DNA of 64,000 bases from NCBI GenBank assembly GCA_965214705.1, contig OZ243972.1, positions 1,920,001-1,984,000 on the forward strand. Reading direction: 5' to 3'. The position numbers and the translations under genes are program-made. Below the pieces are notes generated by a model, which made no database searches, was not told the DNA's origin, and saw nothing but the letters and a program-made list of their open reading frames with translations. This DNA is from Alphaproteobacteria bacterium. Lineage in GTDB: Bacteria > Pseudomonadota > Alphaproteobacteria > UBA828. This document shows positions 1,521-64,000 of the stretch, piece by piece. Numbering within the stretch: the stretch's first letter is position 1; the number at the start of each line of letters is the position of its first letter.

Positions 1521-2693
1521 TCATGACGATGCTGTTGCTGCCGACTCGCCGTCCGCCATTGCGGCCTCGATGGCCTTTCCAATGCGCTCGGCGGCGGCCT
1601 GCAGGTCGCGGTCGCCGACATGGGCGTATCGCAGGGTCATCACAGGGTCGGCGTGCCCGAGCATGCGCGCGACGGTGGACAGGGGAACGCCCCGGGCGAC
1701 GGCCTGGCTGGCAACGGTATGCCTGAGATCGTGCAGGCGGACGTCGTCGAGACCGGCTTCCTTCCGCGCCCGATGCCACAGGTGCAGTGTGGGTGAAAGC
1801 GGTTTGTCAGGATGCCACGGGGACGGGAACACGTAAGGACTTGTGGCACGCGGCTGGCGGGCGAGGATGGCCTGTGCGGCCTGGCTCAGCCAGACCGTTC
1901 GCGGTCCGGTCTTGGTGTTGGCGAGGTTGAGGCGGTCGCCGTCGACCTCCGACCAGCAGAGCTTCAGGATCTCGCCCCTCCTGCAGCCGGTGAGCAGGAG
2001 CAGCCGGATGATATCGGCCTGTTGCTGGCGGGAGGGCCATTCCGCGACCAGCCGATCGAGGACGCGGTGAAGCCTTTCGATCTCTTCGTCGGAGAGGAAC
2101 CGGGTGAGCTTCGGGCGGGGATTCTTGGCGATGCCCTTGACGGGAGCGGTGTCCACATGACCAGCAGCGGAGGCGGCGTTCATGATCTGGCCGAAGATCT
2201 CGAGCGCCTTGTTGGCTCCGCCCGGAGCGGTGCGGCTGTAGGCGTCGAACCACCGTTCGACGTCGATCCGCCGGATGGCGTCCAGCGGGAGGCGGCCGAA
2301 GGCGGGGATCAGCTGCCGTTCGAGCACACGATTGGCGAATCGGCAGGACGTCGGGGCGCAGCGGCGGCGGTAAGCCGGCAACCACTCGTCAAGGATGAAG
2401 TCGCGGAACAAGGGAGCGCCGGAACGTCCTTCCGCCTTGCGCGGGACGGTTCCCAGACGGAGTTCCAAGGCTTCCTTCCGGGCGTCCTCAACGGTCATGA
2501 GCGCGGCCGGGCCGACAGTTCTCCTGACCGGCTCCCCCTGGACGCGCCCGTGCCAGACGAAGCTGCGATGCCCGGACGGGCGCACTCGCACGCCAAGGCC
2601 GGGCACCTCGCTGTCCCAGACCGCGTATTCCGTCGTGCCCGGCTTCAACCTGCCGACGCCCGCGTCAGTCAGACGGACCCTCCGCCCCTTCAT
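1521..2693 (-). CDS. Tyrosine recombinase/integrase with N-terminal arm-binding (DUF4102-like) domain; second gene of the recipient element's pair
   Basis: WDSEVPGLGVRV arm domain; catalytic GCRRGE, TKTG, HDLRH, LGH, RYAH; ATGA overlap with the upstream integrase stop at 2690-2693. Confidence 0.92.
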   Translation of the reverse strand: MKGRRVRLTDAGVGRLKPGTTEYAVWDSEVPGLGVRVRPSGHRSFVWHGRVQGEPVRRTVGPAALMTVEDARKEALELRLGTVPRKAEGRSGAPLFRDFILDEWLPAYRRRCAPTSCRFANRVLERQLIPAFGRLPLDAIRRIDVERWFDAYSRTAPGGANKALEIFGQIMNAASAAGHVDTAPVKGIAKNPRPKLTRFLSDEEIERLHRVLDRLVAEWPSRQQQADIIRLLLLTGCRRGEILKLCWSEVDGDRLNLANTKTGPRTVWLSQAAQAILARQPRATSPYVFPSPWHPDKPLSPTLHLWHRARKEAGLDDVRLHDLRHTVASQAVARGVPLSTVARMLGHADPVMTLRYAHVGDRDLQAAAERIGKAIEAAMADGESAATASS

Positions 2694-3052
2694 GGCCGCC
2701 TCCCCGACAGGACGGGAGACAGGGTCTCGACCGCTTCGCGGACCGTGGCGTCGGACAGGTGGGCGTATTTCAGGGTGGTCGATGCGTTCTCATGACCGAG
2801 CAGGCGGCCGACGGTGCGCACGCTCTCGCCGCAGAGCAGCGCCATGCTGGCGTACGAATGCCTGGTGTCGTGCAGGCGAACGTCCTGCAGCCCGGCTTCC
2901 TCCCTCACGCCATGCCAGAAGTGATCCAGCCACTGCCAGGGGGTGCGCAGACCGGCGACCGGGAAGACGAACCCGGACGACCGGGGCAGGCTGTCGAGGA
3001 CGCCGCGCGCCGCCGCACACAGCCAGACCGTGCGCGGGCCGGTTTTGCTGTC
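2690..3052 (-). pseudogene. 3' half of a tyrosine integrase interrupted by the ICE
   Basis: Open frame from 3052: DSKTGPRTVWLC...HDTRHSYAS...LGHENASTTLKYAH; no N-terminal half adjacent; continues the frame of 63309->64000. Confidence 0.9.
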
Positions 3053-3058
3053 GGTAAG
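3038..3058 (-). other. Left attachment junction (core GACAG 3052-3048)
   Basis: Minus strand CTT ACC GAC AGC AAA ACC GGC, versus right junction CTG ACG GAC AGA AAG ACA GGG. Confidence 0.85.
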
Positions 3059-3119
3059 AACCGCTATCCATCTAACTCACCTAAATACAACAATTATTCT
3101 CTTTCCTGACCTGATCCGA

Positions 3120-3169
3120 GATCAAACCGAAAGCGGATTCAATAGTATTGCAGCGCGCCAGAGCGTATC
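3120..3169 (+). promoter_or_regulatory. Putative integrase arm-type binding sites, left end
   Basis: GATCAAACCG followed by GCGGATTC/AGTATTG/GCGTATC; the same motifs occur in direct orientation at 63130-63180. Confidence 0.5.
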
Positions 3170-3175
3170 TGCCCG

Positions 3176-3493
3176 TCACGCGACCGCCCCAAGACCGTTC
3201 TTGGCGACCAGTGTCAGCAGCTTGAGCGAGGTGCCCCGGGGGCGCTTCTCGCCGCGCTCCCACTGGCTCACCAGACCCGTCGTCACGTTGAGGTAGCGCG
3301 CGAACACCGCCTGGCTCGCATGCTCGCGCAGCCGAAGCTCGCGAATGTCCTCCGGCGTCATCTCCTTGACGGGCGTGAGGCACATCTCGTCGAACTTCCG
3401 CATGGTCCGTTTCGACATCAGGCCCGCCTCGGCCAGGCCGAGCGCCGCCTCGTGCGCAGCCGCGAGCGCCTCACTCTTGTATTGCTTGGTCAT
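3176..3493 (-). CDS. HigA-like XRE/HTH antitoxin
   Basis: SQAVFARYLNVTTGLVSQWERGEKRPRG HTH; overlaps the 3' end of the toxin gene. Confidence 0.85.
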   Translation of the reverse strand: MTKQYKSEALAAAHEAALGLAEAGLMSKRTMRKFDEMCLTPVKEMTPEDIRELRLREHASQAVFARYLNVTTGLVSQWERGEKRPRGTSLKLLTLVAKNGLGAVA

Positions 3494-7196: not shown

Positions 7197-7220
7197 ATCG
7201 TCAACTGTCTCTCCTCGCCT

Positions 7221-11674: not shown

Positions 11675-14600
11675 GGACGTTCTCCACCCGGCCGCTCCTC
11701 CGGTGCGGAAAAGGGGCAAGGAAGGCGAGCAACGATGGCCACAGTTTCCACGCTGACGTGGACGATCCGGCGGAACGCCGCGATCAAATCGCGCGGATCG
11801 TCGAACCAGCGGTTCGGGTCGTTGATGATGCCGCTCCGGTTGTCCCGCACGATCCGGTAGCGGTCGATGAACCATTCCAGGGGCGTTCGTCCGTTGACTT
11901 GGTACTCGTGAGCCCGCGGCGGGATACCTTTGAGGCGCAGGTATTCGTTAACAGTAAGGACCGTTCTTTCATCGTCCTCGAACCGCATTGCCCGCGCTCC
12001 GATCCTGAAATGTTCGGGTTCCGGTTCGCTCGGCGAGAGGAATTCCAATTCGAGCGGGTGTTCCGGACAGGTCTCGTAGCCGAGATGCAGCTCGGCCAGT
12101 CGACGGCCCGCTTCCGCAAAGGCACGAAAATCGTCGGCGAGCGGGACGCGCGGCAATTCCTTGGCGAGGTCGTTGGCGAAGCGTTCCCGGTAGTCCGGCG
12201 CATGCAGGACGCCGTAGACATAGTCGAAGATGGCGTCCTTTGTTATCGCGTTGTCACCATAGCGCACCCGGAACGCACGGAGCGCAGTGTCGGAAATGTT
12301 GTCGATTCGCTCCGGCGGCGGTCCCATGCCGGGCAAGCTCTGCTGGCCGCTCCGGCGCTCGTAGCGGTATCGGGGGAAGCATTGGCAAGCTTCTTCCACG
12401 AAGTGGAGGTCTGGCATTGTATCGACCACGAGGGCAGCAAAGGGCCTTCTTGAGCCAACCGCCGGCACGCAGATGGCACAGTTCTCGCTGTCGCCTTCCG
12501 GGAAGATACTGTCCAACTGGTACTTCCTCTGCGCGAACAGATGGTCGACATAGCAATGCTGTTTAGCAAAAGGACGGTATTGCGCGCTCCAAAGCTTGTC
12601 TTGGGAATATTCGACGGGTTCTTGCCGAAGTAATCTGCTCTTTAGCTCGCTATCCCATCGGAGATTGGACGAATGCCGTTGTGTGATGTCATCGACGACG
12701 GAACTCAATTCAACTTTTGACTCGGGATTCTCCTTCCACTCGTCTAACGCTTCTTTCAACTCCTCCAACGCATCCACATAGTTGTCTACCATCTTCCGGG
12801 CAATCTCGGCGCACACCTCTCGGGGGGTGTAGTTCTCGTATGGCGATGATTGACTCGGCTTGATCCATGAGTTCCTGCGGTGCGGAGCATCCTCACCTCC
12901 CGGTGACGCCCACTGTCGTGACAAAAGCCCGCCCTGGAACGGGCGATTGTCACGAAACTACGATTTCGCCTGTTTGCCTCGACCCATGAACCACGTTGTA
13001 TCAATGGCTTACGATTGCCATACGAGAACTACACCCCTCTCGGGAATAGTTGTAGACATACGTATCGCGACCAGTCTTGTAGCCGTTGCTGAATAGTCTG
13101 AAGATGGGCTCGTCCGTCCTTCCAGCCTTGGCCTCCTTCGAGCCCATCGCATAGAGTGACCGGAACGCCTCGTCGCGCTGGCCGATCCAGTCATGGTGCC
13201 GATCCGGGACAATCTCATCCCAGCTCTCGATGCCAGCAACCGAACTCCACTCGCGCAGCATCTCGAGCTTGTCCTCGCGGGAAAGATAGTCGCCGATGTC
13301 GCGATACAGGATGCGGCAGCCTTCATGCGTCGCATCTGGGTTTTTCGCGAGGATCGTGATTGCGACCGGCGCGCGGGAGCCTTGGCCGAATACCTTGCCG
13401 CCTTCCCGGCGCGAGCGCTCGCCTTGTGTCCGTTGGTTTCCCCGAAGATTCACGACGTAGATCGAGCTGAACTCCTCCGCCAGACAAGCCCGCACGCCGG
13501 AGTCGACACTGCCGTATAGCCAGTAGCCATTGGTTACGAACGCGATCACGCCCCGGTCGCCGATGCGATCCGACGCCCAGCGGATCGCCATCTTGTACGT
13601 ATCGTACAGGCTGTTCTTGTTGGTTGATGTGGAATGAGAAGCATAGGTATCCGCCACACGTGCTTCGAGTTCGGGATAATCCACGTTCGGATTGTCGTCG
13701 GCCGAACTCCTCTGCCCTGCCGACCAGGGTGGGTTGCCGACTATGACCTGGATGGGCAGCTTCTGCTGACGTTCGGCGCGTTCGCTGTTGTCCGGGAGCC
13801 AGTCCTTCGGGAACCCCGCGCGGCCGGAGTGCAGGTTGAAGGTGTCGGTGAGCACGATTCCGCCGAACGGCTCGTAGTCACCGTCATCGCCTGCTCGGCC
13901 GTGAAACGCCTCTTCTATATGGATGGCAGCGATATAGTAGGCGAGCAGGACAAGCTCGTTGGCGTGAAGCTCCTCCGAGTACTTGCGTTTAAGGTCAGCG
14001 TCGCGAATCAGTGCTGACTGCAACAGCCGAACAAGGAAGATGCCTGTTCCAGTGAAGGGGTCGAGCACATGGACTCCTTCGTCGGTCAGACCCCGGCCGA
14101 ACTCCGAGCGCGCCACGTGATCGGCGCTGGCCAAGATGAAATCCACGATCTGGACCGGCGTGTAGACGATGCCGAGCCGATCCGCGTCCTTCTTCATCGC
14201 AGTGGAGAAGAACTTCTCATACAACTCCATCAGCACGCGCTGGCGCGCGGCAGGGTTGTCCAGGCCACGTGCACGGAGTCGCACACTTTCATAAAACCCC
14301 TCCAGATCGCGGGTTTCGTTTTCCAGCCCGAACTCCCCGAAATCGCGCCGCAGCGCATCGAGCGCCCGGGCAACCGGATTGCCGCCGGCGAAGTCGTAGC
14401 CCTCGAACAGCGCCTCGAACACCGGACGGGTCAGAATGTGCTGCGCCATCATGTCGATGGCGCTCTCGGTTGTGATGGATTTGTTGATCGACACCTTGAG
14501 TTCGGCGTGGAATGCCTCGAACCATTCGCTCAGTGTCTCGTTGCCGGGGTCGGCAAGCAGGCCGCCGATGCGCGTCACCAGGCGCGAGAAGATGTCCGCG

Positions 14601-16684
14601 ACATCCTTCGCCCAGCTCTCCCAGTATTTCCGGTCGCCGCACTTCTCGACGATCCTCGCGTAGATTGCGCCCGGTGGCAGATCGAGCGGGGGGAACGCAA
14701 GCTCGGGCGAGTCGGGGATGGTCTCCCCGTTGACGCCATCCCGGCTGAAGATGATCCGGTCCGTCGGTCGGTCATTCAGATCGATCTGATTAATCTCGGC
14801 ATCGAGGCGGTCGTCATGCGAGCGAAGCGCGCGAACAACGCTCCAAACGACGTCGAACTCCTTGCCGCTGTCGAGGACCAGCGCCGGATCCCGCCCCTCC
14901 GGCACCGCGATCGGGAGCACAATGTATCCGTAGGTCTTGCCTTCGGCCCTGCGCATGGCGCGCCCGACGGCCTGCACGATATCGACGATGCTCTTGCGCT
15001 CGGTCATGAAGATCACCGCATCGAGCGCCGGCACGTCGATTCCCTCCGAGAGGCACCGCGCGTTGGACAGGATGCGGCAGGCGCCTCCAGTCGTGCTCTT
15101 CAGCCATTCGATGCGCGCTTTGCGGTCGAGCGCGTGATGCTGTCCGTCCACATGCCGGGTCTCGCACCGGAACGCCGTGGTGCGCTCGCCCTCCGGCAAC
15201 AAGGCCGCGGCTTGCTCGACAAGGCCGCCCCAATGCTTCGCCAGGAGTTCCGACGACTTGATTCTGTCCGTGAACGCGATCGCACGCTGCAAGGGTCGGC
15301 CGGGTCCGTCTTCCGGCCGTCGATTCTCCGGGTTCTGCAATGCCCGCCAGCAGCCGACGATGCGGGCGGCGTCGCTGAGGTTGATCGCACCCCCGGAGGA
15401 AGCCAGATGGGCCTGCAAGGCCCTGTCCACATGGCTTTCCGACAAGGCGAGAACGACGACCTTGTAGTCTGACAACAGGCCCTGCTCGACGGCCCGCGAG
15501 AATGGTAGCCGATGGAACTCGGGCCCGTAGGTCGCCTCGTCGTCCATCGAGAACACCTCGACGCCGTGTGTTGCGGCCCTTGTCTTCGCCCCCTCGGCAT
15601 AAAGGCGCGGCGTCGCCGTCATGTAGAGGCGTCGCACGGCTAGTATGCGCCCGGCGTCATGCACGAGGACGAACGGCGACGTCTTGTCACCGGGGCGTTC
15701 GATCCCCGTCGTCCGGTGCGCCTCGTCGCAGAGAATGAGGTCGAACGCCGGTGCGCCTTCGTCCTGCGCCCGCTCGACCAGACCGAGCGAGTGATAAGTG
15801 CAGAACACGACGGTCATGGTATTCGAAGGCACCCGCAACGCCTTGCCGATCATGGATGCATCGGTCGTGACGGGGATTTCCAGTTCGAGAAACGAGGCGT
15901 CCTCGTCAGTCCGTCCGGCGCGAGTATCCGAGCAGATGCCGACGTAGCGGTGCGCCAGTTCGCGCTGTTCCGCCCATTCGCGCATCGATTGCTGGAACAG
16001 GGAGATCGAGGGAACGAGGTAGAGCACCCTGCCTCCCTCGCCAGCGATCGCTTCGGCGATGCGCAACGCCGTGAAGGTCTTGCCGGTGCCGCATGCCATG
16101 ACCAGCTTGCCGCGGTCGCGGTCCGCGAATCCCTTCAGCACATTTTCGAACGCCCGTCGCTGGTGTAGCCGCAGGCTGAATGGCTCACGCCGAAAGGCCA
16201 GGTCTTCGGGTTTCTCGCGAACCAAGTCCGGCCAGTCGAACGGGCGGCTCGCTAGATCGCCAAACCGGAGCACGGAACACGCAGGCTTCAGTCCGGTGAT
16301 CGTCTTGACCGCGTTCGTCCCCCATTCGTCTCCGGTGTCTACGACGATTCGCGCCGTGAACGGTTCACGCGCCGACGCAGCGATGAAGGAATCGAGCTCG
16401 GCCTTCGAAATCCTCGTGCCCGGTGCGTAGCACTTGCATTGAATGGCGCAATGGCCGCCTCCCCGCTCCTCGGCAACGAGATCGATGCCGGTGTCGGCAC
16501 CGTCGAAATCATGTCGGGTGGCGGCCCATTCGGACCACAATTCCACCTGATCGAACCGGTCCCGGTAGAGCGGATCCTGCTCGAAATACGCCTTCATCAA
16601 CCGCTCGAACAGGCGGCCCTTCTCGGCCTCGGTCCCGGCGATCGACCGAATGTGGTCGAGGACGCGCTGGAAGCCGTCACTCAT
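11671..16684 (-). pseudogene. Type ISP restriction-modification enzyme (Mrr-like nuclease, SF2 helicase, N6-adenine MTase, TRD), interrupted by a MITE
   Basis: DTGIDLV..IQCK nuclease; MACGTGKT and DEAHRT helicase; DPFTGTG and GNPPW MTase; C-terminal YRPF..QCFPRY; removing 220 bp restores one 1597-aa frame (YVYNYSRE-VCAEIARK). Confidence 0.9.
12825..13036. mobile_element. 212-bp non-autonomous MITE
   Basis: Terminal IRs GGGTGTAGTTCTCGTATGGC / GCCATACGAGAACTACACCC; 8-bp TSD CTCTCGGG (12817-12824, 13037-13044); internal hairpin 12917-12954. Confidence 0.88.
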
Positions 16685-19097: not shown

Positions 19098-19100
19098 GGT

Positions 19101-21012
<1,912 letters not shown>

Positions 21013-21016
<4 letters not shown>

Positions 21017-25981: not shown

Positions 25982-25993
25982 CAGGTGGTCACC

Positions 25994-42328: not shown

Positions 42329-42330
42329 TT

Positions 42331-49138: not shown

Positions 49139-49392
49139 CGCGCTTGCTCCGCGGCCCGCTGCCGGGCCGTCATCGAGACGTACGAACGCGTGTCTCGGTG
49201 CTTGAACCAGGCGGTGCCGTCCTCGTCGTGGAACATGTAGAGGTAGTGGCCCGCCCAGTCGCGCTTCGAGCGCTCGGCGGACAGCACGCCCGCCAGGATC
49301 GCCGCGCGGAACACCTCCTCGGCGTCCCGCACCACCCGGATGCCGGGGGCAATGCCGCCCCGGTTCTCACGCCGCCTGCCGCGCCGCGCCAT
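49135..49392 (-). CDS. Hypothetical protein
   Basis: GGAGG RBS; FRAAILAGVLS..YLYM..FKHRDTRSY; coupled to trbI. Confidence 0.55.
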   Translation of the reverse strand: MARRGRRRENRGGIAPGIRVVRDAEEVFRAAILAGVLSAERSKRDWAGHYLYMFHDEDGTAWFKHRDTRSYVSMTARQRAAEQAR

Positions 49393-50095: not shown

Positions 50096-52794
50096 TCGCC
50101 GTCTCCTTTCTTGTCCGCATGTTCGATGTCGCCATCGGCGCCGGCGCTGTCGTCTCCGCCGGCTGTCTCCTGGATGCCGGTTTCGCCGCCGGTTCGGCCG
50201 GAGCCGTCCCCAGGCCTCGCGCCGTCCGCGACGGGAGCGTCCCCCGCGAGCCGGTCGATGGCCTCGACGGTGGAGAGCCCCTCGGCCTTGAGCCGCTCGA
50301 CGGCCGCGAATGCGGGTCCGCGCGAGGAGAACAGCGCCACCGACCAGAGATCGAGCACGAGGCGCGCCACGCGCCAGCCGTCGGGACCGTGCAGCAGCAG
50401 CTCCGCATGGCGGCCCTCGGCGGTGGTCAGGCTCTTCAAGGCCCGCTCCATGCCGGGATCGCAGTGGATGCGCTTTTCCTGCTTCAGCAGCTCGACGGAT
50501 TCGTCCTTCTGGGCGAGGAAGATCGTCCAGTCGGAGTTCTCCCAGGCCGCCTGCGCCGCCGGGTTGGCGTAATAGTCGTTGACCGACTGGGTGCCGGTGA
50601 TGAGCGAGCCGCGGTATTTTCTGGCCCTGCGCGCCGCGCCTTCGAGGAAGGCCCGGCTGTTCTCGCCGGAGAGCAGGTCCCAGGCCTCGTCGATGACGAT
50701 GGCCTTCGCCCGCGTGCGCTCCCCGTGATACATGCGCTGGGTGGCGAGGAAGACCACCAGCATCAGCACCACGGCCTGGACGTCGCCCCGGCCCTTGAGC
50801 TCGGCCAGCTCGAACACGGTGAGCGCGGCATCGAGCGCCGGCGTCTCCGCGCCCGCGAACAGCCGTCCCATGGCGCCGCCGGGGCACCACGGACCGAGGG
50901 AGGTCGCCATGTCGGCGGCGCGGCGGTCGCCGCGGGCGTCGAGATGCCGGCGTACGGTGCCGAGATCGGCGTCGTTCCCGGCTTCGTCCCAGGCGGCCGC
51001 AATGGCCTCGGCGATCAGCGCCGCCTCGATGTCGTCGATCGACCCTCGCCTGCGGCACATGCGTCCGATGACGCCCGCCAGCATGGCGAAGCACTCTTCC
51101 CTGTAATCGCCGTCACGGTGCGCCGTGGCGGCGTCGATCATGGCGAAGGGATTGAGGCAGGCGGGATCCTTGCCGAAGGCGATGAAGGCGCCGCCCAATG
51201 CTTCCGCCGTGTGCTGGAAGGACCGGCCGTCGTCGATCACCACGGCCTCGCCGCCCGCGCCGACGATGCCGGTGACCAGCTCCTGCATCAGCACCGACTT
51301 GCCCGAGCCGGATTTTCCCGTCACGGCGACGTTGTAGTTGCCCGCCTCGTTGGCAAACGGCGACCAGCCGGCCGGCTGGCCGCGGCGGCCGATCAGGAAC
51401 AGAGCCGGCGGGTTGTCGAGATTGACGGGCTGTCCCCGCCACTCGCCGTGCAGCGGAGCCAGGTTGACCGCCGAGGAGCTCAGCAGGGTCTTCACGCGGC
51501 CCATGCGCGCGAGATCGCCGTTGAGCCCGCCCGCCGGGACCATCGGCAGGCAGGAGAGCCAGGAGGGGAGCTGGACGTAGCGCTCGGCGCTCACCCGCCA
51601 GCCCTGGCCGTGATAGATCGCGCGCACCGCCTGCTCGGCCTCGTCCAGCGCATCGAGCGGCGCGTAGACCGCGGCGAAGTAGCAGGCCTTCACCAGCCGC
51701 TCGCCGTCCTTGAGGCGCTCGGTGACGAACTGCCAGTCCCGTGCCTTCTCGGGCAGCCCCGGCAGGTATCGCGCGATCCCGGTGCCGGCCTGCTGGGTGG
51801 CGCGCGCGGACTTGAGGAACGCCTTCTCCCCGTCGGCCGCCTCGCCGGTCATAACGGTGAGACAGGTCAGCACCGGACATCCGGGCTGCAGGAAGTCGCG
51901 GTGGAAGTCGCCGATCAGCGCGTTGCCGCGCCAGCCCGGCCACACCTCGGGAAAGGTAGCGGCCGTCAGCACCCGCACCGCAACGTCGCCGGCACGCGTG
52001 TCGCTGCCGCTCCCTCCGTGGAATACCAGGCCCGTGGGCGCGACAGTGAGCGCGCGGCCGGGCGCGGCGCATTGCAGGTGAATGGGATCCCTCGGAGACC
52101 AGCGGCGGCGCGGCCGGTGGAGCGGGGTGGCCGTGCCCGGTTCGGCATCGGGCGCGATCGCGGGCGCGATCAGCTCGGCAGCGAGCGACAGCAGCGCATC
52201 GGGACCGAGCCTCCGCGCCACGGCCCCGGCCGAGGCGAGCGTCCCTTCGAGCGCCCGCCGGAAGGCCGAGAGCGCGGTCTCGGGAGCCGGGCCGGGAGGA
52301 CCCGCCAGCGAGGCGCAGACGAAGGCCCGGTAGTCCGACAGCGTGAATGGCGGCCCGCCCGGATGCAGCGCCCGCCAGCCCGCGCCGCCGAGGAGACGAA
52401 GCCTGCGGCGCGCCATGCCGGCCTGGACGGGACCCGCGTCCCCGCGCGGCCCGGCCCAGGCATCGAGCGCCGCGCCGAAGCGCGGGCTCGCCCAGTGGAT
52501 CACCTGCACCGTGCAGCGCTCGGGCGCGGCGTCGGCCAGCGTGCCCGCGAGCGCGCCGAGCGTCTCGGCGTCGATCCCGGCGAAGGGCGGGATCTCGACA
52601 ACGAACCCGACCGAGCCCGCGTTGACATAGAGCTCGCCCCGCTCGTCGAAGGCGCGCCAGGGCAGCAGCTCGCAAAGCGCCGCGCCGGTCTCGGGCGGCG
52701 ACCAGGGCTCCAGCCCGGCCGGACCCTCGAACAGGTCGAGCAGGCGGCGCGCGATGCCGGAGCCGGCGCCCGGCGGCGTCACCGCAGCCTCCAT
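50092..52794 (-). CDS. traC: TraC (VirB4-like ATPase)
   Basis: ELLPWRAFD, NYNVAVTGKSGSGKS, IDEAWDLL, ARRARKY. Confidence 0.95.
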   Translation of the reverse strand: MEAAVTPPGAGSGIARRLLDLFEGPAGLEPWSPPETGAALCELLPWRAFDERGELYVNAGSVGFVVEIPPFAGIDAETLGALAGTLADAAPERCTVQVIHWASPRFGAALDAWAGPRGDAGPVQAGMARRRLRLLGGAGWRALHPGGPPFTLSDYRAFVCASLAGPPGPAPETALSAFRRALEGTLASAGAVARRLGPDALLSLAAELIAPAIAPDAEPGTATPLHRPRRRWSPRDPIHLQCAAPGRALTVAPTGLVFHGGSGSDTRAGDVAVRVLTAATFPEVWPGWRGNALIGDFHRDFLQPGCPVLTCLTVMTGEAADGEKAFLKSARATQQAGTGIARYLPGLPEKARDWQFVTERLKDGERLVKACYFAAVYAPLDALDEAEQAVRAIYHGQGWRVSAERYVQLPSWLSCLPMVPAGGLNGDLARMGRVKTLLSSSAVNLAPLHGEWRGQPVNLDNPPALFLIGRRGQPAGWSPFANEAGNYNVAVTGKSGSGKSVLMQELVTGIVGAGGEAVVIDDGRSFQHTAEALGGAFIAFGKDPACLNPFAMIDAATAHRDGDYREECFAMLAGVIGRMCRRRGSIDDIEAALIAEAIAAAWDEAGNDADLGTVRRHLDARGDRRAADMATSLGPWCPGGAMGRLFAGAETPALDAALTVFELAELKGRGDVQAVVLMLVVFLATQRMYHGERTRAKAIVIDEAWDLLSGENSRAFLEGAARRARKYRGSLITGTQSVNDYYANPAAQAAWENSDWTIFLAQKDESVELLKQEKRIHCDPGMERALKSLTTAEGRHAELLLHGPDGWRVARLVLDLWSVALFSSRGPAFAAVERLKAEGLSTVEAIDRLAGDAPVADGARPGDGSGRTGGETGIQETAGGDDSAGADGDIEHADKKGDGE

Positions 52795-53579
52795 TCGGCC
52801 GGCGCGATCACCGCCCGCACGTAACTCCCCTCGCGGTAGATGCCGTCGGCATCCACGAAGGGCGCGATCCAGATGCGCGCCACCACCTCGCCGGTACGGA
52901 ACGCATCCGATGCGGCCGGATCGGGCGCGTTATCGGCGCGGGCATCGCCGGCCGCCTCGCCCTCGGCCGTGGGCGGCGCATCGTCCGGGACCGGCGGCGC
53001 GATCGCGGCCGAACCGGCTCTCAAAGCACCGGACGCGGAATGGCCGGTAGCGGCGGAGGAGTCCCGGACGGCGCCCGCTACCGGCGCGGCGCGACTTACT
53101 CTCGGGCCGGCGGTCGCATCGGTCGCGACATCGTTATTTCGCCGGGAGAGGCCCGTTTCCGAATCCGCGTCACCGGCATCGCCGATGCCCGAGAACAGCG
53201 ACCCGAGCCAGGCGAACGGATCGCAATCCGATTCGCAGGCCGGTTCGTCGGCAGTCCCGGCCGACAGGCCCGCAACGATGCGACCGCTGCCCTGTCCGTG
53301 GCGCGGGATTGCACCTGCGAGCCTCGTCCCATCTCGCGTCTCCGGCACGAGTGTCTCCGGCACGAGTGTCTCCGGCGCGCGCGTCTCCGACGCGCGCGTC
53401 TCCGACGCGAGTGTCTGCGGCACCGCCGGGTCGGCGGCGAAGACGGACGCGCACACCTTTCCCTGCGCCAGCGGGCATTGCCAGTCGTCGCCCACATGGG
53501 TCGCCGAGCAGCCCGCCAGCGCCAGCGCGGCAATCAAGGCCGCCCCCGCTGCAGGCGGCCGGTTCCTGCGTTCAGTCAT
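52779..53579 (-). CDS. traV: TraV lipoprotein
   Basis: Lipobox LAGC, WQCP..C, RIWIAPFVDADG. Confidence 0.85.
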   Translation of the reverse strand: MTERRNRPPAAGAALIAALALAGCSATHVGDDWQCPLAQGKVCASVFAADPAVPQTLASETRASETRAPETLVPETLVPETRDGTRLAGAIPRHGQGSGRIVAGLSAGTADEPACESDCDPFAWLGSLFSGIGDAGDADSETGLSRRNNDVATDATAGPRVSRAAPVAGAVRDSSAATGHSASGALRAGSAAIAPPVPDDAPPTAEGEAAGDARADNAPDPAASDAFRTGEVVARIWIAPFVDADGIYREGSYVRAVIAPAEWRLR

Positions 53580-54828
53580 TCCTCTTCCCCTTTTCGGTCC
53601 TTCCGTCGAGCCACGCGCCCTCGATGAACACCACCGTCACCCGGGTCCCGGCCTGGAGCTGGATCACCGGCTGGTACTGTTCGGCGCGCCGGATCAGGTA
53701 GTCGGCGACCTTGCGGCCCGCCGACGAAGCCCCGGAGCCGAGCCCGGCCCGGCCGATATCGTCGAGACCGGTATTGGCCATCGAAGCTCCCGTGCCGGTG
53801 GCGACGGCCTGCGGCGCGAACGCGCCCGAGACACCCTCGCCGAGCCCGGAGACGAGGCCGGCCAGGAACGCCTTCTCGACCAGCGCGCCCTCGCGGCTCA
53901 CCACGGGGCCGCGCACACCGGTCTTGCCGGCGCCGGCGACGAACCCCGCAACCTGTGTTTCCAGCACCGTGCCGGGGTGTTCCCCCGTGCCGGGCTCGTC
54001 TCCGACGCAGGTGAGCGTCCTGAGCCTCGCGTAGACCTTCTCCGACGAGAGGTCGCCATGGGCGGCGCCGGTCACGGTGCAGCCGTCGATATCGACGGCG
54101 AGCGCCCTGCCATCGACCGCCGCGGTCCATGCGGGACCGACGATCCTGAGCAGCACCGGGCGCGGGTCGCCCTGCGACGAGACCCCCGCCGAGGCGTCGA
54201 CGCCCGCGAGCACGATCGCCTCGGCGTGGCTCCCGGCCGGAAGCCAGGCGCCGATATCCCTGGCGGGGGGCGCGTCGAACGGCTCCTCCGAACCGTCGAG
54301 CCGGAAGGTCTCGATCAGAGACCCGGTCTCCGGCACGGCCCCGGACGCGGCATCGCCGGCCGTCGGGGCTGTCCGCCGCCCCGCGCCCCGCTGGAACAGC
54401 TCGCCCTTCGGCGCGCCCTCGGCCGGGGCGGCTTCTGAGCCCGCCCCCGCGCGCTCCATCTCGGCGATCTTCGCCGCGAGGCCGTCGATGACACGCTTCG
54501 CGTCCTGGGCATTGGCGGTAAGCTGGGTCCGGAGGCGCTCATTCTCCTGGTTCACGCGATTCGCCCTGGTCTCCATGTCGCGCAGCCGCGCGTCCATGTC
54601 GCCGAGTCGGGCTTCAGAGCGCCGCGTCCAGCTCTCCTCGGCCGTCCCCGGCGTCGCGAGCTCGGCATCGATGCGCGCCTCCGGCCGGGGCGCATTGCCG
54701 CCGCCCGCCGCGAGCCAGAAGGCGAACACCATCAGCACCGCCGCCGCGATCACCGAGAACAGCACCAGCTGCCGGTTGCGGGCGCGGCGCGACTCGCCGT
54801 CGCGCGCCTTCGCGGTGCGCGCGCTCAC
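53572..54828 (-). CDS. traB: TraB (VirB10-like)
   Basis: TM plus coiled coil; LPAGS..GVDA, GDLSSE, GVRGPVVSR, YQPVIQLQAG. Confidence 0.92.
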   Translation of the reverse strand: MSARTAKARDGESRRARNRQLVLFSVIAAAVLMVFAFWLAAGGGNAPRPEARIDAELATPGTAEESWTRRSEARLGDMDARLRDMETRANRVNQENERLRTQLTANAQDAKRVIDGLAAKIAEMERAGAGSEAAPAEGAPKGELFQRGAGRRTAPTAGDAASGAVPETGSLIETFRLDGSEEPFDAPPARDIGAWLPAGSHAEAIVLAGVDASAGVSSQGDPRPVLLRIVGPAWTAAVDGRALAVDIDGCTVTGAAHGDLSSEKVYARLRTLTCVGDEPGTGEHPGTVLETQVAGFVAGAGKTGVRGPVVSREGALVEKAFLAGLVSGLGEGVSGAFAPQAVATGTGASMANTGLDDIGRAGLGSGASSAGRKVADYLIRRAEQYQPVIQLQAGTRVTVVFIEGAWLDGRTEKGKRND

Positions 54829-55811
54829 CGTGACTCTCCCGCGTGCGGCGGATCGGCAACCGGACCGTCTCCGGCGCGAGTGTCTCCGGCACGGGCGTCC
54901 TCGTACACCGCCACCGCGAGCCTGCCGCCCGAGGGGCCGGTGCCGGGCGCCGCCAGCCAGAGAGCGGCGAGGCGGCCGATGCCCGCCAGCCCGCCGATGG
55001 TCTCCGGCACGCGTGTCTCCGGCACGAGTGTCTCCGGCACGAGTGTCCCGGCGAGGCCCGCGGCGCCCTCCGCGCCCCCTGAGGCCGAAGGGCCGGCCTC
55101 GAACACGAACGCCGAGAAGCGCGATCCACGCCAGGTCTCGATGACCTTCAATCCTGAGACACCCGTGCCGGGGACACTTGTGCCGACGACCGCGCGCCCG
55201 GCATGGACCGCATAACCGGCAAGCGGCTCGCCCCGCGCCGCCGCGCGGATCAGGCGCACCAGCGCGCCGATGCGATCGTCGCCGGCCGCCGCCGTTCGAT
55301 CGGACGTGGATGCGGTCGCAGGTGCCGGCGAAACGACCGCCGGGTTGCGGATCAGGATCTGCGTCGCGCCCACGGACACGGGCGTCAGAGCGAGCCGGTA
55401 GGTGAAGCCCCGCTCGGTGCCGATGAACAGCACCTCGGGCCCCGCCGCCGCCGCGCCGTCGCCCCCGAGGGGGCGCAGGTAGAGATCGCCGCTCGCCGGG
55501 TCGTGCTCGACGCGCAGGCCGCCGGGCGCCCGGATCACCTTGGCGACGCGGTCGCCCGGCAGCGCGATGCGAACAACCCCGGACATGGAGATGTCCGCCG
55601 CAAGCTCGGCATGATCCGCCGCCTCCAGGACACTTGTGCCGGAGACACTCGTGCCGGAGACACTCGTGCCGGCGGCATACGCGCACGAGGCATCCATGGC
55701 GGCGGCCACGGAGCCGTACGCCATACATATAAGGAGTGCCGCCGCCATCGCCGCGACGCGGCCGAAGCGCGCCATGGAGTGCGGTCCGGCCGTCACCGAT
55801 CCTGTATTCAT
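54825..55811 (-). CDS. traK: TraK
   Basis: Signal peptide; VVRIALPGDRV..GDLYLRP..LFIGTERGFTY; between traE and traB. Confidence 0.82.
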   Translation of the reverse strand: MNTGSVTAGPHSMARFGRVAAMAAALLICMAYGSVAAAMDASCAYAAGTSVSGTSVSGTSVLEAADHAELAADISMSGVVRIALPGDRVAKVIRAPGGLRVEHDPASGDLYLRPLGGDGAAAAGPEVLFIGTERGFTYRLALTPVSVGATQILIRNPAVVSPAPATASTSDRTAAAGDDRIGALVRLIRAAARGEPLAGYAVHAGRAVVGTSVPGTGVSGLKVIETWRGSRFSAFVFEAGPSASGGAEGAAGLAGTLVPETLVPETRVPETIGGLAGIGRLAALWLAAPGTGPSGGRLAVAVYEDARAGDTRAGDGPVADPPHAGESR

Positions 55812-55813
55812 CC

Positions 55814-56365
55814 TCAGTCCTCCATCTGCTCGAAGCGCAGCAGAGCGAGCCGGCCCGCGTCGATGCGGAAGGCGAGGCGGTAGCGCCGCTTCTGCCGCGA
55901 AGCCTCCTCGCGCCCGATCCAGGTCACCAGCTCGCCCGCGATCTCGGCGCTGAGTTCGCGCCCGTCGCTCTCGATGCTCCTCGGGTAGAACGCGGTCGAG
56001 AGGTCGCGCCGGGCCATCCGCTCGGCTTCCGACGCCACCCAGGCGCCGATAGCGCCCCGGGCCTCGGCATGGGCGAGGCGCGCGACCGCCTCGCGCACAT
56101 GGGCCGCGTTTTCGGGCGTGAGCGTGAGCAGCGTCACCGCTGCGGTGCGCGCCGCATCCTCCAGGTAGCGCCGCCCCGCCCAGCTCTCCCCCACCTCCCA
56201 GGCGGGACCCGAGACGGCGGGAACCAGCACGGTCACCCGTTCGCGGCTGGTCAGCCCGTGCGCCAGCACCAGGTTGGAGAGAACCGCGAGCGCCAGCAGC
56301 CCGGCGAGAACCGCCCGCGTGTCCCGCGCCCGGCGGCGCTCCGCGTCCATCGCCTCGCGCCTCAT
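55814..56365 (-). CDS. traE: TraE
   Basis: N-terminal TM, VLVP, YLE..LTLTPEN; between traL and traK. Confidence 0.82.
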   Translation of the reverse strand: MRREAMDAERRRARDTRAVLAGLLALAVLSNLVLAHGLTSRERVTVLVPAVSGPAWEVGESWAGRRYLEDAARTAAVTLLTLTPENAAHVREAVARLAHAEARGAIGAWVASEAERMARRDLSTAFYPRSIESDGRELSAEIAGELVTWIGREEASRQKRRYRLAFRIDAGRLALLRFEQMED

Positions 56366-56655
56366 CCGAAGTACCGCCTGACATGGCTTGGCGGGGTGCC
56401 ACGGAGCCGCAGCACGAACTCGGGCAGGAACCAGTAGAGCGCGTAGAGCGCGATGTTGGCCCCGCCGCCGCGCTTGACGCGGCGCAGCAGCAGCCAGCCG
56501 GCGATGCCGGCCACCAGTCCCGCGACGAACTGGTTCGCCGCGAGCCCGAGCACCGCCGGTCCCAGCAGTGCCGCCGCCTCGTCGAAGGTCCAGAACAGCC
56601 AGCGCTCCGGGTCGTCGAGACGGCGCGGGATCGCATGGCGCGCGGTGTCGTTCAC
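56362..56655 (-). CDS. traL: TraL
   Basis: IPRRLDDPERWLFWTFDE..LYWFLP. Confidence 0.9.
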   Translation of the reverse strand: MNDTARHAIPRRLDDPERWLFWTFDEAAALLGPAVLGLAANQFVAGLVAGIAGWLLLRRVKRGGGANIALYALYWFLPEFVLRLRGTPPSHVRRYFG

Positions 56656-56664
56656 TGTGGCCTC

Positions 56665-56988: not shown

Positions 56989-57710
56989 CACCTGTCCTCC
57001 TTCCCGGTGTCGTCCCTGTCCGGCGGCGAGGTCGCCGCTCTCTCCTCGCGCTCCTTCTCGTCGGCCTCGGTGGTCGAGCGCGCCTCGCGCGCGGCCGCCC
57101 ACTCCGCCACCTTCGAGCGCAGATAGCGCGCCCGGTTGCCCATACGGCTGAACGGCGGTCCCTTGCCGCTGCCCCGGTAAGCCTGAAGCGTGCGGGGCGA
57201 CAGTTTCAGGAACTCCGCCGCCTCCTCGGTGCTCATGTAGCCGTCCTCGGTCATCTCCATCTCCTCATTGCCTTCCTTCCCCACCGGAACCGCCGGCGCC
57301 CCGTCCTCGACCGCCGCCCTGATCGCCTCGCGCTGGGCCGGGTTCGTATGCTCGGCCATGACGGCGTCCGCCTTGTCCATGGTGGCGAGCCGGGGCAGGC
57401 CGCCATCGAGCAGCCAGGTCGCAAAGGACCGGTTCCTGTTGACGTCGCGGCTGAACTCCGAGCGCTTTATGCCGGTGACCGCCAGGAACGCCCTGACCTC
57501 GGCCACGAAGCGGTCCCCGACCGGTTCGCGGCCCATCCCGACCAGCAGCTTGTCCACCGTATCCAGGCGCGGATTGCGCCCCTTCTTCTTCACCCGAAAG
57601 ACGAAGGTGGGATCGCGCATCGTCTCCCGGCCGAAGCGGCTGGGGGACATGTCGTGACGCTCCATATGGGCGTCGATGGCGCCGAGGAAGTGGGTGCGGT
57701 ATCGGGTCAT
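56988..57710 (-). CDS. Fusion of two Cro-like repeats and a C-terminal excisionase-type (HTH_17) domain
   Basis: Repeats SPSRFGRETMRDPTFVFRVK..PRLDT and KRSEFSRDVNRNRSFATWL..PRLAT; C-terminal YMSTEEAAEFLKLSPRTLQAYRGSGKGPPF. Confidence 0.75.
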   Translation of the reverse strand: MTRYRTHFLGAIDAHMERHDMSPSRFGRETMRDPTFVFRVKKKGRNPRLDTVDKLLVGMGREPVGDRFVAEVRAFLAVTGIKRSEFSRDVNRNRSFATWLLDGGLPRLATMDKADAVMAEHTNPAQREAIRAAVEDGAPAVPVGKEGNEEMEMTEDGYMSTEEAAEFLKLSPRTLQAYRGSGKGPPFSRMGNRARYLRSKVAEWAAAREARSTTEADEKEREERAATSPPDRDDTGKEDR

Positions 57711-57716
57711 GGGCCG

Positions 57717-57731
57717 GAACGTAGGTGGAAC
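57717..57731. promoter_or_regulatory. Alphaproteobacterial LexA (SOS) box GAAC-N7-GAAC
   Basis: GAACgtaggtgGAAC, 6 bp upstream of the ATG that opens the cro-xis/tra operon. Confidence 0.6.
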
Positions 57732-57739
57732 ATTCCGGC

Positions 57740-57769
57740 TTGACAATATATTTCAGTCTTCAATACACT
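57740..57769 (+). promoter_or_regulatory. Putative sigma70 promoter of the repressor gene
   Basis: TTGACA-18 bp-TACACT. Confidence 0.45.
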
Positions 57770-57801
57770 ACTGTTCTACGCAGCAGATACGAGCCACGAC
57801 C

Positions 57802-58488
57802 ATGCAAAGCGACCCGCTACGACAAAAAATCAGGGATCTGCTATGGCAGCGCGGCCTCACCATGAAGGAGGCCTCCGCCGCCATCGGCCGCAGCCCGAGC
57901 TACCTGAACCAGTTCATCGCCCGCGGCACGCCCAAGGCGCTCGGCTATGCCGACGCCCAGAGCCTCGCGAAGCTGCTCGGCTGCGAGGCGTCCGAGCTGC
58001 GCCATCCCGAGCCGCCCAGGCGCAGGCCGCAGAAGCGCCGCCGGCGCACCGCGCCCCCTGCCGGCGCGCCGCTCGTCGCCATCCCCGAGGTGGCGGTCGA
58101 GGCCGCCGCCGGGCCGGGCGCGCTCAACGAGGAGTTCGTCGACGAGAAGGCGCGCTGGTACCTGCCCGAGGGCATGATCCGCCACGAGGGCGACGCCGAC
58201 CCCGGCACCCTGCGCGTGCTCCGCGCCCGCGGCGACTCCATGGAGCCGCTGGTCTCCGACGGCGACCGGCTGCTGGTCGACCTCGCCCGGCGCACCCCCG
58301 GCACCGGAGAGATGGCGGTGCTCTGGGACGGCTCGGGGCTGGTGGTCAAGCGGGTCGAGGTGATGCCCCATGCCGAGCCGCCGAGGCTCCGCCTCCACTC
58401 CGCCAACCCCGACTACGAGCCCTACAGCTGCCTCGCCGAGGAAGCCCACATCGTCGGCAAGGTCGTCTGGACCGTGAGGAAATGCTGA
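57802..58488 (+). CDS. CI/LexA-like repressor with S24 autopeptidase domain
   Basis: N-terminal HTH; AAAG cleavage site; GDSMEP; VVKR; IVGKVVW. Confidence 0.9.
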   Translation: MQSDPLRQKIRDLLWQRGLTMKEASAAIGRSPSYLNQFIARGTPKALGYADAQSLAKLLGCEASELRHPEPPRRRPQKRRRRTAPPAGAPLVAIPEVAVEAAAGPGALNEEFVDEKARWYLPEGMIRHEGDADPGTLRVLRARGDSMEPLVSDGDRLLVDLARRTPGTGEMAVLWDGSGLVVKRVEVMPHAEPPRLRLHSANPDYEPYSCLAEEAHIVGKVVWTVRKC

Positions 58489-61937: not shown

Positions 61938-63115
61938 GCCGCGCTCCGCTCCGGCGCCACATGGACGCCTATGCTGTCGCCCACCCGGCCCGCCGCCGCC
62001 CTCTCCGCGTCGCGCACCAGATGCGCATAGCGCGCCGTCGTCGCCACCCGGGAATGGCCCAGCAGCCGCCCGATCATGCTCAGGCTCTCCCCCAGCGCCA
62101 GCGCCCGGCTCGCGTAGCTGTGACGGGCGTCGTGAAGGCGCACGTCCTTGAGACCGGCTCGCTCCGCGACGCACTTCCAATAGTAGTCGAGGGTGGCTAG
62201 GTGGGAGTCCGGCTTGCGGCCGGGCACGACCCACGGACTGCCGTCCGTTCGGTCGATGCCGTCGAGCACCTTCAGCAGCGGCGGGGTCAGCGGCACCATG
62301 CGAGGCCCCGACTTCGCGTCCCTCAACCGCAGCTCGTTCGCCACCCGGTCGATGTCGTCCCACTTGAGCGTCAGGATCTCGCTCTTGCGGCAGCCGCTCA
62401 GGATCAGGAGCCGGATCGCCGCCACCGCCTGCGGCCACGGCGCCGATTTCGACGCCGCCTCGCGAAGCGTCACGCCCAGCCGGCGGTATTCCTCCGGCGT
62501 CAGGAAACGCTCGCGCGTGTGCTCGCGGTAGTAGTACAGCAACCGGCACGGGTTGGACCCGCGCGGCACCAGCTCCCAGCTCTCCGCCAGCTTGTACATC
62601 TTCGACAGGACCGCCGCGGCGGTGTTGGCCATGTAGGGGGTGTCGCGCAGCCGGTGGTGCAGCTCGGCCGCGTCTTCCCGCCCCACCTCCCCGAGCGCCT
62701 TGCCGCCCAGCGCCGGCAGGATGTGCAGGTCCAGCGCCGTCCGGTAGAGTCCCGCCGTCTTCGGCTTGCAGTGCATCGCCACATGCTTCTCCATGTAGCG
62801 CTCCGCCAGCCCGGCCACCGTGAGTGCCGGCGCCGGAGGCGCCGGGAAGGGATCCTCGCCCCGCTTGATCCGGTCGATCGCCGCCGCCGCCCGCGTTCTC
62901 GCCTCCTCGACGGTGATATCGCCATGCTTGCCAACCCTGGCGCGCTTCAGCCCGCCCGGCCCCCTGGATTGCACCACGTAGACCTTGCGTCCGGTGGCGT
63001 GCACGCGTACGCCGAAACCGGCAAGATCGCGGTCCCAGAAGGTTGCGTCGCCGCGATCGACGCGGAGCGCATCGACGGTGCGCTTGGCGATCTTGAGGGT
63101 ACTTCGCTTGGGCAT
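61934..63115 (-). CDS. ICE tyrosine integrase 1 (arm-binding domain + catalytic domain)
   Basis: WDRDLAGFGVR; GCRKSE, AKSG, HDARH, LGH, RYAH. Confidence 0.92.
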   Translation of the reverse strand: MPKRSTLKIAKRTVDALRVDRGDATFWDRDLAGFGVRVHATGRKVYVVQSRGPGGLKRARVGKHGDITVEEARTRAAAAIDRIKRGEDPFPAPPAPALTVAGLAERYMEKHVAMHCKPKTAGLYRTALDLHILPALGGKALGEVGREDAAELHHRLRDTPYMANTAAAVLSKMYKLAESWELVPRGSNPCRLLYYYREHTRERFLTPEEYRRLGVTLREAASKSAPWPQAVAAIRLLILSGCRKSEILTLKWDDIDRVANELRLRDAKSGPRMVPLTPPLLKVLDGIDRTDGSPWVVPGRKPDSHLATLDYYWKCVAERAGLKDVRLHDARHSYASRALALGESLSMIGRLLGHSRVATTARYAHLVRDAERAAAGRVGDSIGVHVAPERSAA

Positions 63116-63129
63116 TGGCTTCATCCCGT

Positions 63130-63180
63130 GATCAAACCGCACATGTGCGGCATCGAACCGAGGCGTATTCAAGCGTATTC
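63130..63180 (+). promoter_or_regulatory. Putative integrase arm-type binding sites, right end
   Basis: GATCAAACCG, ATCGAACCG and GCGTATTC x2; palindrome CCGCACATGTGCGG; matches 3120-3169. Confidence 0.5.
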
Positions 63181-63298
63181 TCCGCGCAGGTGCAAGAGGG
63201 TCGTGTCGCTAAAGAATCAAGAATAAGGTAGTTTATATAATGCTTTATGTCTCGACAGCGTAGCAGACCGTATGACCAGCGTAGCTGTCGAAAAGTGC

Positions 63299-63319
63299 CC
63301 CTGTCTTTCTGTCCGTCAG
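63299..63319 (-). other. Right attachment junction (core GACAG 63313-63309)
   Basis: Integrase homology ends at LYLTDRKTG; shares the core and codon-degenerate flanks with 3038-3058. Confidence 0.85.
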
Positions 63320-64000
63320 ATAGAGCCGCCCCTCCCGGTAGGAGCGCCATTGGAGGGTCAGGATCTCTGACTTGCGGCAGCCGGTGAGCAGCAGCAGGCG
63401 CACGGCGGCCACGTGCAGGGGGCGGCTGGCCTCGTGCCGGCCCAGCACGCAGGCGAGGCGGCGATACTCCTCGGGGGTCAGGAAGCGCTCGGACCGCCCC
63501 TGCCGGTAGCGGCGGATGCCGGCACAGGGGTTGCTGTTCTCCGGGCGGTATCCCCACGCCTCGGCCTGCTGCATGATGACCGAGAGGATCGGCGCCGAGC
63601 GGTTCGCGGCGGCGGGCGTCGCGTGCAGCCCGCGGAACCAGGCCCGCACGTCCTCCCTGGTTATCTCTCCGATGGGCCTGCCCGCGAAGAAGGGCAGGAT
63701 CTGCCGATGGAGGTAGTCGCGGTTCACTTGCATGGTGCGCGGCTTCCAGCGGCGCCCGTAGCGGCCGAAGACCTCCTCGGCGATTGTCTCGAAGAGGGTG
63801 CCGCCGGGGTCCGCCGCATCTGGCTCCCGACCGTCGCGCAACGCGGCGAGCATGGACCTGGCCCTGGCCCGCGCCTTGGGCTCGGTGATCGCCGTCGCGT
63901 CGCCTATGATTTTCCAGACCCGTTTGCCCCTGTGCTGGCTGTGGATGAAGTAGCGTCTGGCGCCGGAGGGCATGATCCGGACGCCGTACCCCTTCAGCTC
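63309..64000 (-). pseudogene. 5' half of the interrupted tyrosine integrase (start lies outside the window)
   Basis: ELKGYGVR arm domain..ERFLTPEE..LLTGCRKSEIL..RLYLTD, with no HxxR or Tyr motifs following. Confidence 0.9.

Follow-up and report, generated by a model that had tools for sequence, protein, structure and literature searches.

How does an integrase gene come to lie in two halves some 60 kb apart, broken at the codons of one of its catalytic residues? The question is raised by a 64,000-nt stretch of an alphaproteobacterial genome (G000; 7.9 Mb, 67% G+C, three contigs, C1 to C3), which we refer to as the window (G000:C1:1920001-1984000) and whose own positions serve as coordinates below. 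Parts of a tyrosine integrase gene, Int1, lie on either side of a 60,256-bp insert (3053-63308) which, judging from its genes and ends, is an integrative and conjugative element (ICE) with two integrase genes of its own, IntA and IntB (Table 1). We propose that the ICE integrated by tyrosine-recombinase site-specific recombination into the L-x-D-S-K-T-G codons of the integrase gene of a smaller, resident mini-element, and put the probability of this reading at roughly 0.85.

To establish what had been split, the two parts of Int1 were compared with the genome singly rather than joined, using queries built with a 9-nt overlap (three residues, LTD). Both had the same intact gene as their best match, C1:614854-615975 (92.6% identity over 256 amino acids for the N-terminal half and 90.1% over 121 amino acids for the C-terminal half), on which they were colinear and abutted save for the overlap built into the queries. 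This paralogue is followed by a paralogue of Int2 (88.5%), the second integrase gene of the mini-element; in the window, the stop codon of the C-terminal half (2690-2692) overlaps the ATG of Int2. At the DNA level, the N-terminal half matches the paralogue up to the sequence GACAG and the C-terminal half matches it from GACAG onward. Since the halves are colinear on a single paralogue and homology breaks at GACAG, they are one integrase gene, split by the ICE at the codons of the conserved beta2-beta3 lysine. In two of the three alignments shown, this lysine falls on the lysine of the G-K-G sequence in XerA and XerC-like proteins of solved structure, and the residues with assigned roles in tyrosine recombinase catalysis (R, K, H-x-x-R, H/W and Y) occur in order in translated IntA, IntB and Int2 and in the two halves of Int1.

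The N-terminal half ends in ...RLYLTD, with the GAC codon at 63313-63311, and then continues through RKTG and another 17 codons, unrelated in sequence, before stopping at 63245-63247; the first four codons of this read-through tail imitate (R/S)-K-T-G. At the other end, the frame of the C-terminal half, followed from 3058, reads CTT ACC GAC AGC AAA ACC GGC (3058-3038) and opens LTDSKTGPRTVWL. When the junctions were compared over 21 bp, all six mismatches fell on third codon positions, for which we calculated by hand a chance of 7/54264, or about 1e-4, given six mismatches in 21 positions.

Logan contigs were examined for four of the 21 sequencing runs listed. Those of runs X1 and X17, which come from two studies, span position 63309 with 0 differences and extend 37 letters beyond it; those of X18 and X20 reach 29 letters past the junction, under the 31-letter threshold for bridging. 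Apparent joints were also present in Logan contigs, with short sides of 21-47 letters, and are probably from other paralogues. Either X1 or X17 may be the source sample. An initial annotation of this DNA had described a 60-kb ICE inside an integrase gene at its lysine codons, and its coordinates were all correct, as borne out by the colinear halves, the break at GACAG and the transfer genes found with Pfam. Its count of third-position mismatches came out the same on recounting, and its assignment of the lysine agreed with two of the three XerA and XerC-like alignments. Two outcomes that it had named as fatal, halves from different integrase clades and a junction created by assembly, run counter to the shared best match and to the X1 and X17 contigs, respectively.

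The same arrangement recurs elsewhere. We collected ten integrase-proximal junctions from this genome (four), other genomes (five) and a metagenome (one), and every one adjoins the N-terminal half of an integrase gene ending in L-x-D-(S/R)-K-T-G, with the junction sequence GAY-(AGA/AGC/TCA)-AAG-AC(A/C)-GG and the insert in the same orientation as the target gene. A recurrently truncated integrase upstream of homologous elements was also what the initial annotation had proposed to look for. There are nine distinct target sequences, and the target genes come from different integrase subfamilies (Int1-, Int2- and IntA/B-type). Two of the loci, L002 and L007, are in one genome; their target sides are 83% identical and their ICE sides 97%, and they may represent one event.

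Two further copies of the ICE backbone are present in this genome. Copy 2 (C1:3009610-3077194) is complete, with aligned backbone segments 91-99.96% identical, and splits an Int2-type gene, the N-terminal part of which ends LMLAD and the C-terminal part of which starts at the same motif; both parts best-match the same set of Int2-type paralogues. The junctions of copy 2 have a 13-bp identical core, CCGACAGCAAGAC, at both ends, and three of the four mismatches, counted by eye, are at third positions. Copy 3 (C3:225383 onward) lies next to an IntB-type gene that is interrupted at the same residue; this copy has lost its distal end, and another IntA/B-type element abuts its truncated ssb gene. 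A more distant integrase pair, at C3:2284709 (IntA identity 63%), adjoins an Int1-type gene cut at the same motif. As a side observation, the IntA/IntB-type pair found directly after the truncated ssb gene of copy 3 (C3:302800-303700) is 58% identical, and it looks as if a further element had entered the distal part of this copy or taken its place.

A scan for IntA with one genome per species gave 48 loci. Five of these, L001, L002, L003, L004 and L007, have usable upstream sequence and at least 82% identity, and all five have an upstream integrase N-terminal half, ending in L-x-D-S-K-T-G about 180-195 nt before the IntA start. A similar scan of metagenomes yielded one more junction, in two close relatives with identical junction regions (L055 and L056), and one partial sister, L058. 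In a maximum likelihood tree of 46 IntA-like proteins, eight of the integrases that target the motif form a clade (8/8; SH-aLRT support of 98), whereas no integrase lies upstream in the branches next to it (L008, L014 and L009-L015). Two tandem integrase open reading frames were present at 30 of the 36 loci examined. Site choice thus appears to be a property of the ICE lineage and to be restricted to one integrase clade, and its targeting of the lysine motif is well supported by these comparisons.

These data bear on the idea that the truncated N-terminal half simply travels as part of the ICE, or that the arrangement results from homologous recombination or misassembly among integrase paralogues. 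The genome does have about 100 integrase genes, and short-read contigs break up in this region, but the N-terminal halves differ between copies (median identity 61% over 150 nt) and belong to different subfamilies. Moreover, the transition at each junction is sharp, identity being limited to 5-13 bp, the same junction was found unchanged in the contigs of two runs and the same arrangement occurs in unrelated assemblies. We give this explanation hardly any weight.

The gene interrupted by the ICE is itself part of a repeated unit. This mini-element measures 2.4 kb, consists only of two overlapping P4-like integrase genes and a leader of about 130 bp, and is found on all three contigs, in a total of 24 intact Int1-Int2 pairs as well as in fragments. 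The sequence that copies have in common starts some 130 bp before Int1 and extends through Int2, homology stopping at the Int2 stop codon; copies have a conserved left boundary (ACACC-N6-CGCACCTNCGGTGCTAA) and lie in unrelated flanking DNA. The unit looks like an undescribed two-integrase mobile element. Because the interrupted gene in the window has the same boundary, the ICE landed in the first gene of a mini-element. Copy 2 landed in a different unit of this kind, in its second gene. When 30 relatives were searched at the DNA level, seven genomes of the same genus had a 91-93% identical copy of the N-terminal half. In all seven of these closest homologues the gene is uninterrupted, running through GACAGCAAGACCGG or GACAGCAAAGTCGG into the C-terminal half and an Int2 gene, and they represent the empty form of the target. 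Their homology to this locus ends at 64198-64230 and their flanks differ, except for a further 122-nt match in L136. The seven are therefore empty copies of the same mobile unit, not of the same chromosomal locus.

The mobility and abundance of the mini-element, with 24 intact pairs in unrelated surroundings, raise the possibility that its own Int1 and Int2, rather than IntA and IntB, captured the ICE at a site inside their own gene. Archaeal SSV-type integrases offer a precedent, as they carry attP in their own gene and integration splits it. However, the targets are of Int1-, Int2- and IntA/B-type, yet the insert always has the same IntA clade and arm, and the terminus of the mini-element itself is elsewhere, about 130 bp upstream of Int1. 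In addition, the halves read into and out of the ICE, which is the topology of an insertion into a gene and not that of a self-split integrase. We thus consider capture by the mini-element to be improbable, and retain integration by the ICE's own recombinases as the preferred reading.

Two other loci in this genome are of interest here. A paralogue of the target (C1:3723785-3724565; 87-93%) has about 29 nt of unrelated sequence in place of the D-S-K-T-G codons; homology resumes at ...CCGCGTACGGTCTGG and is lost about 70 nt later, and there is no full C-terminal half. This may be the footprint of an imprecise excision. At C2:439927-443275, an IntA-like gene reads D-A-K-T-G-P-K and then GCACTTTTTCCGACC, which resembles the integrase-proximal arm of the ICE; the remainder of the gene is found after an interval of about 2 kb, and there is a duplicated stretch. 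A related element may have been inserted here in a slightly shifted register and left this remnant.

A mechanism can be proposed from the two complete copies. The deduced attP would read CTT ACC GAC AG(A/C) AAG ACA GG(G/A), an in-frame imitation of L-T-D-(S/R)-K-T-G. The ICE would circularise at CTTACC-GACAG-AAAGACAGG, to give a circular form ...GGTTCTTACC-GACAG-(A/C)AAGACAGG(G/A)... with the core CTTACC-GACAG-(A/C)AAGACAGG. Because this core imitates the coding sequence of the motif, related integrase genes reading GAY-(AGY/AGR/TCN)-AAG-ACN-GG could serve as attB. Strand exchange would occur in or next to GACAG. Both AGA and TCA, which are rare codons, recur at the junctions in GC-rich hosts, suggesting that this codon comes from the ICE; if so, exchange would take place in GACAG or to its left. 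There is little similarity between attP and target to the left of GACAG. On the right, the half-site would be AAGACNGG; here the K-T-G codons of the target are matched by AAGACAGG, likely the core-binding half-site. Inspection by eye for inverted-repeat half-sites around the core revealed no convincing symmetry. IntA and IntB would act together on this asymmetric core, as XerC and XerD do, and the conserved pairing of the two genes is consistent with two recombinases acting together. Their own motifs (GAC GCG AAG TCG in IntA and GAT GCG AAG ACT in IntB) lack the AG that follows GAC in the core, and their D-A-K codons would thereby protect the ICE's own genes from self-insertion. Integrase genes would, on this model, be widespread, low-cost landing sites.

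Several points weigh against this reading. The identical core is only 5 bp in the copy studied here, and both ends are known for only two copies. Six loci fetched for distal ICE ends (matches to the RelE/HTH end, in two of the four genomes searched) had no nearby integrase fragment, so that attL is known only for copies 1 and 2; as the distal arms of these two are 99.8% identical, the left half of attP is effectively one sequence. A degenerate attP-like pattern, used to look for attP or a tandem junction, had no match in the genome, and neither an attP circle nor an excision product was found among the assembled Logan contigs, which are fragmented by paralogues. It should also be noted that the IntA tree comes from a quick IQ-TREE search, not a finished careful one, and that, for mobile DNA, the host assigned to a metagenome bin may be incorrect. 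Lastly, a perfect GACAG(A/C)AAGAC is still unoccupied in 18 intact genes, indicating that the word alone does not force insertion.

A further difficulty comes from a sister lineage, L008 and L058 (67% identical), which is inserted at intergenic GCAGAAAGAYATGGACA, about 240 nt upstream of the IntA-like start. The site adjoins a divergently transcribed gene for a secreted-looking protein, not an integrase gene, so a DNA word, and not integrase genes as such, may be what is recognised. One could accordingly suppose that what the ICE targets is a short word (about GACAGMAAGACAGG), and that insertion into integrase genes is not selected for. On this view, integrase genes would be hit only because the word is nearly confined to their lysine motif in these GC-rich genomes; the explanation competes with the adaptive reading, not with the mechanism. 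It would account for the insertions of L008 and L058 upstream of an unrelated gene, and the 18 unoccupied perfect words in integrase genes also fit. It accounts less well for the finding that all ten junctions, from five or more genomes and one metagenome record, interrupt integrase genes representing different subfamilies, or for the similarity of attP, which follows the codon frame over 21 bp. We find it rather unlikely, though clearly the most serious of the alternatives considered, and continue to favour an attachment site matched to the lysine codons. The proposal in the initial annotation that the ICE recognises the integrase motif therefore stands in part: the in-frame imitation by attP and the ten junctions bear it out, and the sister lineage at a similar intergenic word does not. 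Its suggestion that such a target is hard to mutate away is weakened, since the codon after the aspartate varies among the 102 intact instances of the motif in this genome (24 D-A-K, five D-T-K and five D-G-K) and the ICE's own two integrases read D-A-K.

A second lineage of IntA-like pairs, 53-59% identical, is represented by L016, L017, L019, L020 and G000:C1:3418633-3419041, and possibly by L031. Just upstream, on the opposite strand, it has a C-terminal integrase fragment starting at the H-x-x-R-H box. The fragment lies about 220-270 nt upstream of the IntA-like start at L016, L017, L019 and L020, where the junction reads CAT TAT xTA xGx CAC, and more than one type of integrase is represented among the fragments. 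At L023, the element end is the same but lies inside a LivH-like permease gene instead. It is conceivable that paired-integrase elements have repeatedly evolved attachment sites imitating catalytic-box codons, namely those of the lysine box and, in opposite orientation, of the H-x-x-R-H box; we advance this tentatively, the balance being somewhat against it. If true, integrase genes would be a general, protein-constrained landing pad, allowing entry into any genome with integrase-bearing elements, across phyla, while crippling the resident element.

The features of the window are collected in Table 1. The insert encodes an integrase, a relaxase and a coupling protein, together with a mating-pair apparatus that includes a VirB4/TraC ATPase, and it has discrete ends with a short repeat at a specific site, and it is on these genes and ends that we classify it as an ICE. 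The Pfam scan covered the transfer region with the exception of several genes at 43.8-47.5 kb and 52.8-55.8 kb. The ATG of IntB overlaps the stop codon of IntA (ATGA), and the two are translationally coupled P4-like tyrosine integrases. The HTH_3/Peptidase_S24 protein is a candidate SOS-responsive regulator and the HTH_17 protein a candidate excision or directionality factor. In a comparison of the words shared by the two ICE arms, only CGGTTTGATC and TACGC-type repeats were common to both; this is modest evidence that they are possible arm sites for the Arm-DNA-bind_3 domains. The defence cargo comprises a type ISP restriction enzyme and a cas operon with a clustered regularly interspaced short palindromic repeat (CRISPR) array at 26552-27832, with 18 copies of a 36-nt repeat; a 19th is found beyond an inserted 1.7-kb repeat (27849-29530), which has several near-identical copies in the genome. 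The spacers had no match of at least 24 nt in their own genome outside the array. Further ICE genes encode a RelE/HTH pair, an SSB and a YspA-SLOG protein.

Table 1. Positions of the split integrase gene, the mini-element and the ICE (window coordinates unless a contig is given)
Feature	Position	Strand	Remarks
Mini-element, intact examples	C1:614854-617147; C1:433598-435859; C3:480292-482556		
Mini-element, split copy in window	1521-3052 + 63311-64000		
Int2, second integrase of target mini-element	1524..2693	-	intact, 390 aa
Int1 C-terminal half	2693..3052	-	stop 2690-2692; D-SKTGPRTVWL..., with HDTRH and Y box
GACAG core, distal junction (attL-like)	3048..3052	-	
Distal ICE arm	3053..3178	-	ends ...GGATAGCGGTTCTTACC; 99.8% identical in copy 2
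Type ISP restriction-modification enzyme	13004..16684	-	cargo
cas genes and CRISPR array	16899..27832		cargo; GSU0054, GSU0053, Cas3-like, Cas4-Cas1 fusion, Cas2
TrwC-family relaxase-helicase	33232..36186	-	Pfam
Type IV coupling protein	36191..39151	-	Pfam: TrwB_AAD_bind, TraG-D_C
F-type mating-pair genes	39413..56655	-	Pfam
TraG_N	within 39413-43330	-	Pfam
TraH	42337-43776	-	Pfam
TraW (TraW_N)	47515-48201	-	Pfam
S26 peptidase	48201-48767	-	Pfam
TraC (TraC_F_IV)	50095-52794	-	Pfam
TraE	55817-56365	-	Pfam
TraL	56368-56655	-	Pfam
HTH_17 protein, 252 aa	56991..57746	-	Pfam; HTH_17 C-terminal
HTH_3 + Peptidase_S24 protein	57676..58485	+	repressor-like
HNH nuclease-domain protein, 575 aa	59022..60746	-	cargo
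IntB, second ICE integrase, 390 aa	60768..61937	-	Arm-DNA-bind_3 + Phage_integrase; own motif D-A-K-T-G
IntA, first ICE integrase, 393 aa	61937..63115	-	Arm-DNA-bind_3 + Phage_integrase; own motif D-A-K-S-G
Integrase-proximal ICE arm	63116..63308	-	four TACGC repeats + CGGTTTGATC; conserved among relatives
Read-through tail of truncated Int1	63245..63310	-	ICE-encoded; RKTGALFDSYAGHTVCYAVET then stop
GACAG core, integrase-proximal junction (attR-like)	63309..63313	-	homology to intact paralogue stops here
Int1 N-terminal half, target integrase	63311..64000	-	start codon at 64078, beyond window; Arm-DNA-bind_3, SAM-like and central domains, box I (LLLTGCRKSE)

The surroundings are also rich in such elements. 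Some 24 kb beyond the left edge of the window there is a fourth F-type ICE backbone (C1:1838130-1895972), also related (73-86% identity), and a Toprim-like gene and IS91-like transposase/integrase pairs are found to the right of the target mini-element (64100-70500 region). The neighbourhood is a mosaic of mobile DNA.

Integrating elements usually use tRNA genes or the ends of housekeeping genes as attachment sites. Use of the lysine codons of integrase genes would make any genome with a P4-like integrase a potential recipient, and would give one mobile element a direct means of inactivating another or riding on it. It would account for the nested and tandem islands of element-rich symbiont genomes as well, and would amount to a natural test of the tolerance of tyrosine recombinases to synonymous variation in the core. 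The IntA/IntB pair, with its degenerate site of about 20 bp, may be of interest for genome engineering. We found no report of elements that target integrase genes in a literature search whose scope excluded subscription journals (e.g. Ricker et al. 2013) and supplements. Integration into the genes of other elements is already known; what would be new here is an attachment site consisting of the catalytic motif of other elements' integrase genes.

Among known systems, archaeal SSV-type elements also divide an integrase gene on integration, so that one half lies at each end of the integrated DNA. However, it is their own integrase that is split, whereas IntA and IntB are intact and a foreign gene is divided; a self-splitting integrase of this type was rejected because the N-terminal half reads into the ICE and the C-terminal half out of it, with the ICE integrases intact. 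A conjugative element that targets tRNA-Leu(UUG) is similar in having two adjacent tyrosine recombinases, thought to share one attachment site, and a target conserved through its function. It differs in that its direct repeats are 11-13 bp, and the ICE has P4-like, arm-binding integrases and a protein-coding motif as its site.

RIT (recombinase in trio) and Tn554-like elements resemble both units in the window in that overlapping tandem tyrosine-recombinase genes form the mobile core, according to the portions available of PMC3414803 and PMC10214605, and RIT elements occur inside other mobile elements. Both kinds of unit differ from those here in gene content. RIT elements have three genes and inverted-repeat ends, in contrast to the two genes here, each with an Arm-DNA-bind_3 domain, and the insertions reported in the same portion of PMC3414803 are in a transposase gene and radC, rather than in integrase genes as the initial annotation had stated. 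A RIT element (ritA-ritB-ritC) was rejected as a candidate since there are only two recombinase genes, the next ICE gene being that for the HNH protein, and since the mini-element ends at the Int2 stop. A BIM (bipartite module), described in the available part of PMC3414803 as one recombinase with a conserved non-recombinase partner, was rejected because both genes encode recombinases. A further parallel is provided by streptococcal integrative and mobilizable elements, which integrate site-specifically inside the traG, maff2 and snf2 genes and the oriT of ICEs (PMC5357655, as far as its text was available). There, too, a conserved gene of another mobile element serves as the attachment site and is disrupted. 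The same portion of that source assigns serine integrases to the elements inside ICE genes and tyrosine integrases to those at oriT, whereas here a full ICE, with a tyrosine integrase pair, targets the lysine codons of integrase genes homologous to its own.

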